Source: Escherichia coli
Lineage (GTDB): Bacteria > Pseudomonadota > Gammaproteobacteria > Enterobacterales > Enterobacteriaceae
NCBI RefSeq assembly: GCF_016026235.1
Contig: NZ_CP065613.1
Direction: 5' to 3' (one strand)
DNA: 64,000 nucleotides
Shown here: piece after piece, positions 4,038-54,290 of the stretch
How positions within the stretch are numbered: the stretch's first letter is position 1
How the letters are laid out: each line of letters starts with the position of its first letter
Notes under the pieces: model-generated
Seen by the model: the letters and a program-made list of their open reading frames with translations, nothing else
Database searches by the model: none
Told to the model about the DNA's origin: nothing
Position numbers and translations under genes: made by a program

Positions 4038-4132
4038 GGAAGATCGTCGTCTCCGGTGAGGCGGCTGGACTTCAAATCCAGTTGGGGCCGCCAGCGGTCC
4101 CGGGCAGGTTCGACTCCTGTGATCTTCCGCCA
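4038..4132 (+). tRNA. selC: tRNA-Sec (selenocysteine tRNA)
   Basis: 95-nt sequence GGAAGATCG...TTCGACTCCTGTGATCTTCCGCCA with a long variable arm and encoded CCA; recognised as E. coli selC. Confidence 0.95.
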
Positions 4133-23029: not shown

Positions 23030-23170
23030 ACAAAAAACCCCGCCGGAGCGAGGTTTCGTCAGCCGCCTGCGGCTGGTAACCGCAAAGCACACTGTATTAT
23101 GTCAACACTGAAAGTATACCTGTTCCGCGCAGAACGCGCAATTTCGGCACGAATTTTGACGTATTTAGTA
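23030..23170 (-). ncRNA. istR: IstR antitoxin sRNA region (IstR-1/IstR-2); 5' ends approximate
   Basis: Minus-strand hairpin plus U6 terminator near 23032-23053; contains a ~21-nt block (23087-23110) repeated upstream of tisB; sits divergent from a LexA-boxed promoter. Confidence 0.5.
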
Positions 23171-34459: not shown

Positions 34460-35176
34460 ATGATCTACAAAAGCATTGCGGAGCGGTTAAGAATTCGACT
34501 TAATTCCGCAGATTTCACGCTAAACAGCCTTCTTCCCGGTGAAAAAAAGCTGGCGGAAGAGTTTGCGGTATCGCGGATGACCATCCGTAAAGCCATTGAC
34601 CTGCTGGTAGCGTGGGGGCTGGTGGTCCGCCGCCACGGCAGCGGCACTTACCTGGTACGCAAAGATGTGCTGCATCAAACCGCCAGCCTGACCGGGCTGG
34701 TGGAGGTGTTAAAACGGCAGGGAAAAACAGTCACCAGCCAGGTGCTGATTTTTGAAATCATGCCTGCGCCTCCGGCCATTGCCAGCCAGTTACGGATTCA
34801 AATCAACGAGCAGATCTACTTCTCCCGTCGCGTTCGTTTTGGGGAAGGGAAACCGCTGATGCTGGAAGACAGCTATATGCCGGTAAAACTGTTCCGTAAC
34901 CTTTCGCTGCAACATCTGGAAGGGTCGAAGTTTGAATATATTGAACAAGAGTGCGGGATTCTGATTGGCGGTAATTATGAAAGCCTGACGCCGGTGCTCG
35001 CCGATAGACTGCTGGCGCGGCAAATGAAGGTAGCGGAACACACGCCACTGCTGCGGATCACCTCGTTGTCATATAGCGAGAGCGGGGAGTTTTTGAATTA
35101 TTCAGTGATGTTCAGAAATGCCAGCGAATACCAGGTGGAGTACCATTTACGGCGACTCCACCCAGAAAAGAGTTAA
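34460..35176 (+). CDS. yidP: GntR-family (HutC subfamily) transcriptional regulator
   Basis: 238 aa from [10 protein letters not shown]...; N-terminal GntR HTH and UTRA-like C-terminus; divergent from the glv operon. Confidence 0.85.
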
Positions 35177-36834
35177 CCGATACTCCAGAAGAGCACCGCC
35201 AGTAATTGGGGGGTGATAATGCGCAGGAACATCACTAACGGATAGACAGTGGCGTAAGAGAGCGCCGCCGCACCGCTAGTTGGATGAAGATTATTAGCAA
35301 ACGCCAGCGCCGGAGGATCGGTCATGGAACCTGCCAGCATCCCGCACATGGTCAGGTAATTCATTTTGGCTAACATCCGCGCCAGAATGCCAACAGTAAT
35401 CAGCGGAACGGCGGTGATCAGGGCACCATAACCAATCCAGCTTAGCCCTTCGCCATTGACCAGGGTATTCACAAAATCCCCACCAGATTTCAGACCAACG
35501 ACCGAGAGGAACAGCACGATCCCCAGCTCCCGCAGCGCGAGGTTGGCACTTGGCGGCATAAACCAGTACAGCTTGCCGATACTGCCGATACGCCCGAGGA
35601 TCAACGCCATAATCAGCGGACCGCCCGCCAGCCCCAGTTTCAACGCGGCCGGGAATCCCGGCACAAAGACGGGAATAGAACCTAACAATACGCCTAGCCC
35701 GATGCCAATAAACACTGGCAGCATCTGAACCTGTTGCAGTTTTTGCTGCGCATTCCCCAGCACATTGGCAACGGCATCAATTGCGGACGGACGCCCCACC
35801 AGATTGAGGATATCGCCGAACTGCAGGCTGATATCGCCACTGGCGACCAGTTCGACCCCGGCACGGTTCAGGCGCGAGATAACAACGTCATAGCGTTCTT
35901 TAAAGTGCAGGTCGCGAATACGTTTTCCGAGCACGTTTTCATTGGTGACCACCACACGCTCGACGCGCAAATCAGTGCCTTTCGTAGACAGCGAGGTATC
36001 AACCTCCTGACCAATCACCAGTTGCGCATTATGTAAATCCGCTGGCTGCCCCACCAGATGCAGCAAATCGCCCAGTTGGATAATGGTATCTGGCGAAGGA
36101 ACTTTTAGGGTTTCTTCGCGTTTCAGACGCGAGCAGATAATTTTGTCGCCGTTGAGAATCGGTACATCTTTAATGGCTAAATCATGCAGGTTAGGGTTCT
36201 CAACGCGAATATTGATAGTCCTGATCAGCGCGCCGCCATTGGTGCGTGAAGATTCGTGCTGCTGGGCTTCTGTCTCGACATTGACGCGGAAAATAACCCG
36301 CAACATCCACATGGTGAACAAAATCCCGCAAATGCCGAATGGATACGCCATCGCGTAACTCATCCCCATCTGATCGACCATTTCCATTGGTGTACCCAGG
36401 TCGCGCAAGATCTGCTGCCCTGCCCCCAGCGCTGGCGTATTGGTTACCGCACCGGAGAAAATCCCCAGCACTACCGGCAGTGGAATATCAAACAGTTTAT
36501 GCAGGATGGCGGTAACCAGACCACCGATGATGACGATCAGAACAGCAAACAGGTTGAGGCGTAATCCGGAGACGCGCAATGAGGCAAAGAAGCCCGGCCC
36601 TACCTGAATCCCGATAGTATAAACGAACAGGATCAGGCCAAATTCCTGAATAACATGCAGCATATCGCTACTTAATGTCATCCCCGCCTGAGAAACAAAA
36701 TGGCCGACGATGATCCCACCAAACAGCACGCCGCCAATACCTAATCCTATGCCGCGAAATTTGACGTTGCCGATAAACAAACCGACGACTGCCACCAAAG
36801 CCAAAATACTGACCGTTAATGCTATATCACTCAT
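35173..36834 (-). CDS. yidE: AAE-family transporter with TrkA-C domains
   Basis: 553 aa from MSDIALTVS...; recognised as YidE. Confidence 0.85.
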
Positions 36835-36987
36835 CGTCCATTTCTCTTGAGATAACATTTTAATTGCTACGGATTATGGCTGAATCGGTGAAGCAGATTT
36901 GCCTTATAGCGCACATTATCACGGGAAAGAACGTGCCGAAATATCTTAAACAGTCGAAATTTAACGCATTGTTGAAGAAGAAAGACA

Positions 36988-37015
36988 AAAAAAGCCCCAC
37001 CAGAATGGCGGGGCA
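36988..37015 (-). terminator. intrinsic terminator after ibpB
   Basis: Minus-strand hairpin GCCCCGCCATTCTGGTGGGGC followed by a T-run. Confidence 0.65.
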
Positions 37016-37029
37016 AAGAGAATAGCTAG

Positions 37030-37458
37030 TTAGCTATTTAACGCGGGACGTTCGCTGATAGCGATACGCTGCGCTGCGATGGGTTCAGGCTCGTTACGAA
37101 TTAAATCAATATGCAGTAAACCGTTTACGAAGGTTGCGCCAGAGACTTCCATATTTTCAGCCAGCGTAAAGCTCAGGCTAAATGGCTGATTCATAAGCCC
37201 TTGATGCAGCCATTTTTTCTCTTCTTTTGGCTGCTCCGGCGTGCCTTTTACGCTCAGGCGCGTACCTTCCAGTTGAATCTCTAAATCTTCCTGACGGAAA
37301 CCTGCCAGCGCAAGGGTAATGCGGTAGTGGTTATCGTCGCTTTTCTCAATGTTGTACGGCGGGAAGCTCTGACTTTCACCGGCGTTTTGCAGTGCGTTGG
37401 CCAGTTTGTCAAAACCGATCCATTGACGCATCAGTGGGGATAAATCGAAGTTACGCAT
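37030..37458 (-). CDS. ibpB: small heat-shock protein IbpB
   Basis: 142 aa from [20 protein letters not shown]...; alpha-crystallin domain. Confidence 0.9.
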
Positions 37459-37569
37459 AGTCATTTCTCCTTCTAAGAAGCGAGTAAGTACCTGCAAATC
37501 CGAAGATTCGCATATGCTCCCTGACGGCGAGCATGGAGATGTCAGGCCGCGCAAGGCGGCCTTAGGGAA

Positions 37570-37983
37570 TTAGTTGATTTCGATACGGCGCGGTTTTTTC
37601 GCTTCCGGAATCACGCGTTCGAGATCGATATACAGCAAACCATTTACCAGGTTAGCGCCACGAACATGAATGTTCTCAGCTAACTGGAATTTGCGTTCAA
37701 AGTTGCGTTCAGCGATGCCCTGGTACAGATAGGTGCGCTCTTTTTGTTCGTCGGCGTGAGCACCTTTCACCACCAGAAGATTATCCTGGGCGGTAATTTC
37801 CAGTTCGCTCTCAGCAAAACCAGCCACAGCGATAGCAATGCGGTAATGGTTTTCGTCTACCAGTTCAACGTTATACGGAGGATAGCCGCCATTACTCTGG
37901 CTCTGGTTGTTTTCTAAGTGGTTAAACAAACGGTCAAATCCAATAGCAGAACGGTAAAGCGGGGATAAATCAAAGTTACGCAT
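37570..37983 (-). CDS. ibpA: small heat-shock protein IbpA
   Basis: 137 aa from [20 protein letters not shown]... Confidence 0.9.
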
Positions 37984-38078
37984 AATCAATAGCTCCTGAA
38001 ATCAGCGAGAATGTAAGACCTTCCACAATGGACAGGTCAGGTAGCCAGAACACCCATCAGGCGCGTCCTCATCGGCTA
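37984..38078 (-). promoter_or_regulatory. ibpA 5' UTR (~100 nt), reported site of a ROSE-like RNA thermometer
   Basis: Long leader between the sigma-32 promoter and the start codon with the SD inside a predicted stem; the fold was not computed. Confidence 0.45.
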
Positions 38079-38084
38079 CGATGT

Positions 38085-38114
38085 AAAAATGGGTCTGGAA
38101 ATGAACTTTTCAAG
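38085..38114 (-). promoter_or_regulatory. sigma-32 heat-shock promoter of ibpAB
   Basis: Minus strand reads CTTGAAA-14 nt-CCCATTTTT, matching sigma-32 consensus CTTGAAA / CCCCATnT. Confidence 0.65.
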
Positions 38115-38288
38115 CCTTATCAGCGGACTTTTTTTTGCAGTTTATGGTCTATTGCATAGACTGAGGGGGCAGCACGAAACGTTAAAGTGCGATAGCCGCC
38201 ACAGAGCGACGTAATGATGATGTTATTTTCAGCAAGGGATCGCTATAACTCATCAGGCCAACACCCACGATCAACAGATGAATTTATT

Positions 38289-38621
38289 ATGATAAGAAAT
38301 GTGTTGTTAGCGTTCATGATATGCAGTGGAATGGCATTACTCGGAGGATGCTCCAGCGTGATGTCCCATACCGGAGGGAAAGAAGGAACGTATCCCGGCA
38401 CCCGCGCCAGCGCCACCATGATTGGCGATGATGAAACCAACTGGGGCACTAAGTCGCTGGCGATTCTCGATATGCCGTTTACCGCTGTGATGGACACGCT
38501 TTTACTACCGTGGGATGTGTTCCGCAAAGACAGCTCGGTGCGCTCACGCGTTGAAAAAAGCGAAGCCAACGCGCAAGCCACCAATGCGGTTATTCCACCG
38601 GCCAGAATGCCTGATAACTGA
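38289..38621 (+). CDS. yidQ: small lipoprotein of unknown function
   Basis: 110 aa from MIRNVLLAFMICSGMALLGGCSS (lipobox LLGGC). Confidence 0.8.
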   Translation: MIRNVLLAFMICSGMALLGGCSSVMSHTGGKEGTYPGTRASATMIGDDETNWGTKSLAILDMPFTAVMDTLLLPWDVFRKDSSVRSRVEKSEANAQATNAVIPPARMPDN

Positions 38622-48146: not shown

Positions 48147-48244
48147 GCCGGATGCGGCGTGAACGCCTTATCCGGCCTACAAAAACATGCAAATTCAATA
48201 TATTGCAGGAGTCTCGTAGGCCTGATAAGCGTAGCGCAACAGGC
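48147..48244. repeat. two REP elements in inverted orientation (BIME)
   Basis: GCCGGATGCGGCGTGAACGCCTTATCCGGCCTAC and GTAGGCCTGATAAGCGTAGCGCAACAGGC. Confidence 0.65.
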
Positions 48245-52886: not shown

Positions 52887-54290
52887 TTACGATGACAATG
52901 TTCTGATTAAATTTGAAAAATCTTCTTTGATATCGTGGCTCTCTTCACGCAACTGCTCGATCTTACGGCAGGCATGAAGCACCGTCGTGTGGTCACGACC
53001 ACCAAACGCATCGCCAATCTCCGGCAGACTGTGGTTAGTCAGCTCTTTCGCCAGCGCCATCGCCATCTGGCGCGGACGCGCCACCGAGCGGGATCGACGC
53101 TTGGAAAGGAGATCCGCGACTTTGATCTTGTAGTACTCCGCCACCGTCTTCTGAATATTGTCGATGGTGACCAGTTTTTCCTGCAATGCCAGCAAGTCGC
53201 GCAGCGCCTCACGCACGAAGTCGATGGTGATCGCCCGTCCGGTAAAGTTGGCATTGGCAATGACGCGGTTCAGCGCCCCTTCCAGCTCACGTACGTTAGA
53301 TCGTAGACGCTTGGCGATAAAGAACGCCACTTCGCCCGGCAAACGAATGTCGTTTTCGTCGGCCTTTTTCATCAGGATCGCCACACGGGTTTCCAGCTCT
53401 GGCGGTTCGATCGCCACAGTCAGTCCCCAACCGAAGCGGGATTTCAAACGATCCTCAACGCCGTTGATCTCTTTCGGATAGCGATCCGAGGTGAGAATGA
53501 TCTGTTGATTACCTTCCAGCAGGGCGTTGAAGGTATGGAAAAACTCTTCCTGAGATCGTTCTTTATTAGCAAAAAACTGAATATCGTCGATCAGCAGTGC
53601 ATCTACGGAACGGTAGTAGCGTTTAAACTCTTCGATCGCGTTGTTTTGCAGGGCTTTAACCATGTCCTGAACAAAGCGCTCGGAGTGCATATAAACCACT
53701 TTGGCATTCGGCTTGCGCGCCATAATGCCGTTACCCACCGCATGCAGCAGGTGAGTTTTACCCAGACCCGTGCCGCCATAAAGGAACAACGGGTTATAGG
53801 CACCGCCAGGGTTATCCGCCACCTGGCGAGCCGCCGCGCGCGCCAGTTGGTTAGATTTACCTTCAACGAAGTTATCAAACGTGTGTTTGACGTTTACGTT
53901 AGAACGATAGGTCGGTTCTGCCGGGGCCGGGACGTTATCCCAACCTGAGCGCGTAGAAGGCGCAGCACGTTGCGGCTGCGTTTGCGCCACCTGTGCAGGG
54001 GCCGCGACGTTGCTCGTCACTGCCGCTTGTGGCGTTTGCGTCACCGGTTTGGTGCCGACTTCAAAACGCAGCTGTGGGGCATCCGCTCCGCAGAAACTGG
54101 TTAGCAGTCCATTGATATTATTAAGGTACTTGTCCCGTACCCAATCGAGGACAAAACGGTTTGGCGCGTACAGGGCCAGCGTGTTATCGCTCAGTTCCGC
54201 CTGCAATGGGCGTATCCACATACTGAATTCTGTGGCTGGTAACTCATCCTGCAATCGGGCAAGACACTGCTGCCAAAGCGAAAGTGACAC
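52887..54290 (-). CDS. dnaA: chromosomal replication initiator DnaA
   Basis: 467 aa from a GTG start ([13 protein letters not shown]...); AAA+ Walker [11 protein letters not shown]. Confidence 0.95.

Follow-up and report, generated by a model that had tools for sequence, protein, structure and literature searches.

Promoter, ROSE-like leaders and an intercistronic hairpin in what is very probably the ibpA-ibpB control region of Escherichia coli

Which control elements surround the two adjacent genes read from the minus strand at this locus, and to which of the two genes does each element belong? The identity of the genes is the natural starting point. The product of 37570-37983(-) scores 295.5 bits against an NCBIfam equivalog cut-off of 212 for IbpA, and the product of 37030-37458(-) scores 288.4 bits against a cut-off of 207 for IbpB. 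An E. coli chromosome matches the 1.4-kb ibpAB region at 100% identity, and the RefSeq annotation there lists yidQ, a ROSE feature, ibpA, ibpB and yidE; of the 5426 complete E. coli genomes, 5419 contain the region. The sequence very probably represents the regulatory region of the ibpA-ibpB small-heat-shock operon of Escherichia coli. The ibpAB control system is already known and annotated, and the literature covers sigma-32 control, both thermometers, processing to monocistronic mRNAs and self-repression by IbpA. Locus identity, motifs, structures and their conservation are established in the present analysis; sigma-32 dependence, the temperature response, processing and IbpA feedback are taken from the literature.

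The surroundings of the operon are also those of E. coli. In the window (the whole stretch of DNA that was analysed, 64 kb), the further Rfam matches above threshold are tRNA-Sec, istR, the ES036 (CssrF) sRNA and AsdA, which is antisense to dnaA, and all four are consistent with this part of the E. coli chromosome. A terminator scan of 36800-38400 found a single terminator-like site, 36987-37014(-), at the end of the operon. Weak Rfam sRNA matches at 36986-37127 (Hrs1, anti-hemB, PrrF and GcvB) lie far below threshold and were rejected as the generic hairpin of this operon terminator. The yidE open reading frame at 35173-36858(-) is intact in the window, with 561 aa counted from the first ATG; the strain that matches the ibpAB region at 100% identity has its yidE annotated as a pseudogene, interrupted by an internal stop. 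The features of the region are collected in Table 1.

Table 1. Coordinates of the features discussed, numbered from the first nucleotide of the window
Feature	Position	Strand	Remarks
A8 run, possible UP-element-like tract	38128-38135	-	precedes the -35 element; about -56 to -49 relative to the inferred start
Sigma-32 -35 element CTTGAAA	38108-38114	-	TTGA.A invariant in 48/48 species
Sigma-32 -10 element CCCATTTTT	38085-38093	-	CCCATNT with 0-1 mismatch in most species
Inferred transcription start	38079-38081	-	5-7 nt past the -10 element; coincides with the 5' end of SL1
Leader hairpin SL1, stable	38041-38079	-	-18.5 kcal/mol; apex C / bulged G / CC-UGAU-GG / G at 38063-38053
Rfam ROSE_2 (RF01832) match	37977-38049	-	100.4 bits, gathering score 65; E = 2.4e-23; full-length 1-73
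Leader hairpin SL2 (CCUGUCC...GGAAGG)	38017-38038	-	-9.0 kcal/mol; inside the ROSE_2 match
Leader hairpin SL3, putatively thermosensing	37993-38009	-	anti-SD UCUCGCU pairs SD AGGAG (37997-37993) around a bulged G
ibpA coding sequence	37570-37983	-	137 aa; NCBIfam IbpA equivalog
Intercistronic GC hairpin	37544-37562	-	AGGCCGC-CUUGC-GCGGCCU, 7 bp; -13.9 kcal/mol at 37 °C; 7 nt past the ibpA stop; no U-tract
ibpB leader hairpin-I / SL1 equivalent	37514-37534	-	CUC / bulged G / CC-GUCA-GG / GAG; GCCG..GG invariant in 33/33 aligned spacers
ibpB leader middle hairpin	37493-37512	-	UUCG loop; variable; absent in Citrobacter
ibpB SD hairpin, weak	37467-37484	-	CUCGCUUC pairs GAAGGAG (SD 37473-37467) around a bulged G
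ibpB coding sequence	37030-37458	-	142 aa; NCBIfam IbpB equivalog
Operon intrinsic terminator	36987-37014	-	9-bp GC stem, then T7; -16.7 kcal/mol
Further Rfam matches	4038-4128(+), 23032-23161(-), 48181-48223(+), 53700-53780(+)		tRNA-Sec, istR, ES036 (CssrF) and AsdA listed for these sites

Transcription of the operon can be traced to one promoter. The minus strand carries CTTGAAA at 38114-38108, a 14-nt spacer at 38107-38094 and CCCATTTTT at 38093-38085, present exactly as the initial annotation described its sigma-32 promoter. The sigma-32 consensus has CTTGAAA at -35 and a CCCCATNT-type element at -10, 13-15 nt apart, and the ibpA promoter conforms to it with one departure, an A that replaces the first C of CCCCAT. 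CTTGAAA-N13-15-CCCATNT occurs only once on both strands of the window, against 0.01 occurrences expected from shuffles. A scan of representative genomes was anchored on the ibpA coding start and not on the leader, so that the upstream sequences were unselected, and it yielded 47 further Enterobacterales ibpA upstream regions (n = 48 with E. coli). The promoter motif is found in all 48 with 0-3 mismatches (24 perfect, 18 with one, five with two and one with three), and the spacer between the -35 and -10 elements is 14 nt long in 47. The best match in control segments of the same loci (n = 215) has 3-7 mismatches. A sigma-70 promoter scan of 36800-38400 gave no match, and later papers count ibpAB as a member of the sigma-32 regulon.

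The A8 run upstream of the promoter sits within ACTGCAAAAAAAAGTC at 38141-38126(-). Runs of at least six A are found upstream of the -35 heptamer in 38 of 45 Enterobacterales leaders, against a background of 1.4% among random 40-mers; the distance from the end of the run to the -35 element is 13-15 nt in nearly all 38 and 9-16 nt over the whole set. The position of the run relative to the inferred start suggests an UP-element-like tract; alternatively, it could be part of the divergent yidQ promoter.

The start of transcription was placed at 38079-38081 because these positions are at the given distance past the -10 element and SL1 begins there. The ibpA ATG is at 37983-37981(-), one base beyond the range 37984-38114 of the initial annotation, and about 100 nt lie between the end of the -10 element and this ATG. 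From the inferred start the leader would measure about 96 nt; an ibpA reporter made for Salmonella begins at -99, counted from the AUG.

The suggestion that this leader is a ROSE-like RNA thermometer is well founded. Rfam ROSE_2 matches it far above the gathering score (Table 1), RefSeq annotates the same ROSE feature in the ibpA leader, and the E. coli ibpA thermometer is among the best-studied ROSE-like elements, with a published reporter that is induced 4-fold from 25 to 42 °C. The ROSE_2 match covers the 3' two-thirds of the leader, comprising the 3' half of SL1 together with SL2 and SL3. ROSE-like elements have U(U/C)GCU as their hallmark motif, and the ibpA leader has UCGCU opposite AGGAG with a bulged G in its 3'-proximal hairpin. 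Its minimum-free-energy fold consists of three hairpins, within the range of two to four for such elements, upstream of the small heat-shock gene ibpA and with the Shine-Dalgarno (SD) sequence paired. Among 68 distant ibpA leaders of other gamma- and alphaproteobacteria, 67 have U(U/C)GCU as well.

Comparison across species argues for the same three hairpins. In an alignment of 45 species, 86.5% of the cells are paired under the three-hairpin model, against 34-54% when the partners are slid, and the covariation score of 0.312 (0.163 in shuffles) was reached by none of 500 shuffles. The upper stem of SL1 is 91.6% paired with six pairs changed on both sides, and SL2 is 93.6% paired with three such pairs, so that both hairpins are backed by covariation. 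SL3, at 99.3% paired, hardly varies in sequence.

Thermodynamic calculations add little on the response to temperature itself. The stability of SL3 changes from -4.6 kcal/mol at 37 °C to -3.8 at 42 °C, and the predicted pairing probability of the ibpA SD falls only from 0.89 at 30 °C to 0.80 at 42 °C. The RBS opening energy, calculated as the ensemble cost of opening positions -15 to +2 at 25-50 °C, was compared between ibpA, ibpB and 42 other open reading frames of at least 200 aa in the window, which are crude controls with the first ATG of each taken as its start. At 30 °C it is 7.65 kcal/mol for ibpA and 8.25 for ibpB, both within the range of the controls (n = 42; median 7.05, IQR 5.2-9.6), and the change in opening energy between 30 and 42 °C likewise does not set the leader apart from them. 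The folding at 30 and 42 °C that the initial annotation offered as a check therefore has little power: the SD is predicted to be paired at low temperature, so the unpaired SD that was named as a refutation is not seen, but the opening energy is ordinary next to the 42 open reading frames. Nearest-neighbour folding neither backs nor refutes temperature sensing by the ibpA leader. Because the opening energy is ordinary and the drop in SD pairing small, the case for temperature sensing rests on family membership, conservation and published experiments.

The spacer between the genes is the next part of the problem. A second stem-loop had been noted there at 37540-37560, with the proposal of a separate structured leader for ibpB or of a processing site. 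The stem-loop exists, but at 37562-37544, so that the first coordinates were wrong by 2-4 nt. Both parts of the proposal find a counterpart in published work, as a thermometer in the ibpB 5' UTR and as processing of the bicistronic mRNA; the stem-loop itself is nevertheless not the ibpB thermometer, as it lies upstream of and outside the unit that is homologous to ROSE. The 111-nt spacer folds into four hairpins, at 37562-37544, 37534-37514, 37512-37493 and 37484-37467, and the last three are a diverged ROSE copy in which hairpin I and the SD hairpin have been retained.

Several comparisons identify this copy. When the spacer alone was compared with 4227 Rfam families, ROSE, ROSE_3 and ROSE_2 ranked as the top three, although the ibpB leader is below the gathering threshold of each (ROSE 19.3 against 45 bits, ROSE_3 18.5 against 43 and ROSE_2 15.2 against 65). 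A covariance model trained on ibpA leaders only matches all 35 ibpB leaders over the full length (E about 1e-6 to 0.76) with one unrelated weak match besides in 376 kb; its score for ibpB comes partly from the coding start that ibpA and ibpB have in common. Hairpin I of Rfam ROSE is the counterpart to which the hairpin at 37534-37514 aligns, with high posterior probability, and in the ibpA-leader model this hairpin aligns to the upper stem of SL1. An equivalent is present in 34 of 35 ibpB leaders. The middle hairpin replaces SL2 only loosely in the alignment to the ibpA-leader model. The SD hairpin aligns to SL3 of ibpA and has a stability of -2.9 kcal/mol in isolation, and its T-GCTTC / GA.GG is invariant in 33 of 33 species. 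An RNA thermometer in the ibpB 5' UTR has been published (Gaubig et al. 2011, as described in later papers), and repression of ibpB translation by IbpA has likewise been reported.

The length of the spacer varies among relatives. Some genera have extra sequence between the hairpin-I equivalent and the ibpB SD hairpin, and the spacers measure 146-151 nt at loci L012, L041, L067 and L080, 172-177 nt at L057 and L074, and 247-274 nt at L045 and L100. Enterobacter and Lelliottia spacers have an additional hairpin (CTGTGCACAAAA...CTGTGC), and Serratia spacers are more than twice as long. Two codons before the annotated start of E. coli ibpB there is a further ATG in the same frame (ATGACTATGCGT, 37464-37456(-)), only 2 nt past the SD. 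Siccibacter (L057:5438-5609) has ATT in place of the downstream ATG, so the upstream ATG must be the ibpB start there.

A sigma-54 promoter has been published for ibpB, and it was not located by matching TGGCAC-N5-TTGCW near ibpB. The best sigma-54-like match, TGGTAAATGGTTTGCT at 37649-37634(-), lies inside the 3' coding region of ibpA with two mismatches and keeps GG-N10-GC. It is no convincing candidate for that promoter, and its GG and GC dinucleotides can be explained by the Leu-Val and Leu-Leu codons of LVNGLL. The window has no excess of matches of this quality (309 observed against 338 expected), and other species have 3-5 mismatches to the sigma-54 pattern at that site.

The two leaders share the apex of the first hairpin. 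An apex of C, a bulged G, CC, a 4-nt loop, GG and G is common to SL1 at 38063-38053(-) and to the ibpB hairpin at 37529-37519(-), and it is kept in SL1 of ibpA in 45 of 45 species, with CC/GG invariant in all of them, and in the ibpB leader hairpin in 33 of 33, while the stems below covary freely. The strict form is found in 40 of 48 ibpA leaders and 34 of 35 ibpB leaders, against a background of 0.17 per kb, and the apex occurs in half of the distant ibpA leaders (34 of 68). Its GCC-N4-GGG was considered as a new element and rejected, since it is hairpin I of the classical ROSE model (RF00435); the apex is inherited architecture. In SL1 it falls outside the coverage of the ROSE_2 model.

Papers from the Taguchi group describe the ibpA and ibpB leaders as 'not identical' and call RNA recognition by IbpA an open question. 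In published reporters, repression by IbpA was abolished when SL1 was weakened and equally when it was strengthened. It is conceivable, though improbable, that the apex is a specific determinant for repression by IbpA oligomers and more than a stabiliser. The rpoH mRNA, a third target of IbpA, has no such apex hairpin, which rules out the apex as a universal IbpA site. If it were a determinant for the ibpA and ibpB leaders, recognition by IbpA of its mRNAs would become directly testable.

The remaining hairpin, directly after the ibpA stop, lies outside the ROSE-homologous unit and is conserved with compensatory changes across genera. An equally stable hairpin arose in one of 100 shuffles of its 60-nt context. 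Hairpins of -9 kcal/mol or below are found in 30 of 35 species, starting 5-12 nt past the ibpA stop and most often 7. Among 27 alignable sequences, 91% of the cells in the stem are paired, against 35-45% with slid partners; four pairs are changed on both sides (examples of compensatory stems are GGGCCGC/GCGGCCC, GGGCGGC/GCCGCCC and GAGCCGC/GCGGCTC), and the covariation score was reached by none of 500 shuffles. Serratia and Mangrovibacter carry other, unrelated hairpins in this place after the ibpA stop. Loci L017, L065 and L109, which have normal ibpB leaders, have no comparable hairpin in the 60 nt past the stop. The view that this inverted repeat arose by chance and has no function, for which one can say that short GC-rich inverted repeats are common in intergenic DNA, is scarcely credible in light of its constant spacing from the stop in 30 of 35 species, the covariation and the non-homologous replacement hairpins in Serratia and Mangrovibacter.

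The hairpin has the GC-rich stem-loop of an intrinsic terminator and lacks the U-tract. Its tail in E. coli, GACAUCUCCA, has 2 U, and no U-tract follows in any of the 30 species with the hairpin (median 2 U and maximum 5 in the next 10 nt). The situation is different in relatives that have ibpA only. At all six of the ibpA-only loci with enough downstream sequence, a GC hairpin after the stop is followed by 4-6 T in the next 10 nt. These loci (L024, L042, L048, L049, L063 and L086) are of Pantoea, Mixta and Tatumella type, and AAACGCCGC...GCGGCGTTTTTTTT is an example of their canonical terminator. Wherever ibpB follows, selection has thus preserved the hairpin and not the U-tract, and the hairpin is not a canonical terminator.

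The role that we favor for it, with as much doubt as conviction, is that of protecting the 3' end of the processed monocistronic ibpA mRNA. As expected of a 3' stabiliser, the hairpin is stable, conserved and located directly after the upstream cistron. The bicistronic ibpAB transcript is processed to monocistronic ibpA and ibpB mRNAs (Gaubig et al. 2011, as related in later papers), and the ibpA mRNA is reported to be degraded by PNPase. A search of the literature for 3' ends or RNase E sites in the ibpA-ibpB spacer found no usable data.

Two other roles have to be weighed against 3'-end protection. It is rather unlikely that the hairpin is a weak, non-canonical terminator or attenuator halting some of the polymerases after ibpA, by which monocistronic ibpA mRNA would arise through termination and IbpA would be set above IbpB. 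Such a role could account for a GC-rich stem of 7-9 bp at the place where ibpA-only species have a true terminator, with a stability near that of the operon terminator (-13.9 and -16.7 kcal/mol), but all 30 species with the hairpin lack the U-tract, the terminator scan (36800-38400) makes no call at 37562-37544, and the literature ascribes the monocistronic transcripts to processing.

A service to ibpB, either as a 5' stabiliser of the processed mRNA or as an insulator that keeps ribosomes and the ibpA coding sequence from disturbing the folding of the thermometer, is distinctly unlikely. The hairpin stands directly 5' of the ROSE-like unit and starts 7 nt past the stop, within reach of a terminating ribosome, and stable 5'-proximal hairpins of ROSE elements have been discussed in print as mRNA stabilisers. 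It nevertheless lies outside the region homologous to the ibpA leader, the three loci without a comparable hairpin have normal ibpB leaders, and nothing puts a cleavage site upstream of the hairpin. Protection of the ibpA 3' end remains the preferred role.

Taken together, the elements suggest the following course of events. Sigma-32 RNA polymerase would start about 96 nt upstream of ibpA at the near-consensus heat-shock promoter, and the leader would form the stable SL1 and SL2 and the weak SL3. Imperfect pairing of UCGCU in SL3 with the SD sequence AGGAG is expected to keep translation low at low temperature, and SL3 would melt on warming and release translation, as in a ROSE-like RNA thermometer. 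According to published work, IbpA oligomers bind the ibpA leader and hold translation down until they are titrated away by aggregates. The GC-rich spacer hairpin, having no U-tract, may let the polymerase read through to ibpB, which is preceded by a second, diverged ROSE architecture of hairpin-I equivalent, variable middle hairpin and UCGCU/SD hairpin. Processing by RNase E would then free the monocistronic ibpA mRNA, with the hairpin presumably guarding its 3' end from 3'-5' exonucleases such as PNPase.

The ibpAB operon is a textbook case of layered heat-shock control, in which a sigma-32 promoter, RNA thermometers, mRNA processing, IbpA feedback and Lon proteolysis are combined. The present analysis makes two modest additions to it. 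One is the stop-proximal hairpin, with compensatory changes in its stem, no U-tract before ibpB and a terminator in its place in ibpA-only relatives. The other is that the ibpB leader is a diverged copy of the ibpA ROSE leader. Both are relevant to the control of the IbpA:IbpB ratio and to the features by which IbpA recognises its targets.

Known systems provide parallels. Intercistronic stem-loops that stabilise 3' ends occur in processed polycistronic mRNAs, for example those of the malE-malF, puf and pap operons. The hairpin after ibpA may be analogous to these, in that a stable hairpin without a U-tract lies at the 3' end of the upstream cistron and the monocistronic mRNA of that cistron is reported to accumulate. 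For the ibpA leader, the closest relative is the E. coli ibpA thermometer itself (ROSE_2, RF01832; Waldminghaus et al. 2009, as cited in later papers), which is the same element with the same sequence and three stem-loops, the third of which masks the SD. There is no difference between the two, and the Rfam model RF01832 omits the conserved SL1 apex. For the ibpB leader, the thermometer in the ibpB 5' UTR of Gaubig et al. (2011), as it is known through later papers, likewise has a structured leader before ibpB with a masked SD.

The classical alphaproteobacterial ROSE elements (RF00435; Bradyrhizobium hspA ROSE1) have the same U(U/C)GCU anti-SD with a bulged G. The bulged G and the CC-N4-GG apex of the first hairpin are also common to them and the ibpAB leaders, as is a small heat-shock gene downstream. 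The hairpin-I consensus of RF00435 is cCgGccGCCuuauGGggCcGg, and it is to this consensus that the ibpB hairpin at 37534-37514 aligns. ROSE1 has four hairpins, however, and the ibpB leader reaches only 19.3 bits against the RF00435 threshold of 45. The short ROSE-like thermometers of Pseudomonas ibpA (PMC3669281) resemble the present leaders in having a stable, GC-rich first hairpin and a labile U(U/C)GCU SD hairpin, and they are also under sigma-32 control. They differ in having two hairpins instead of three and in having no ibpB downstream.
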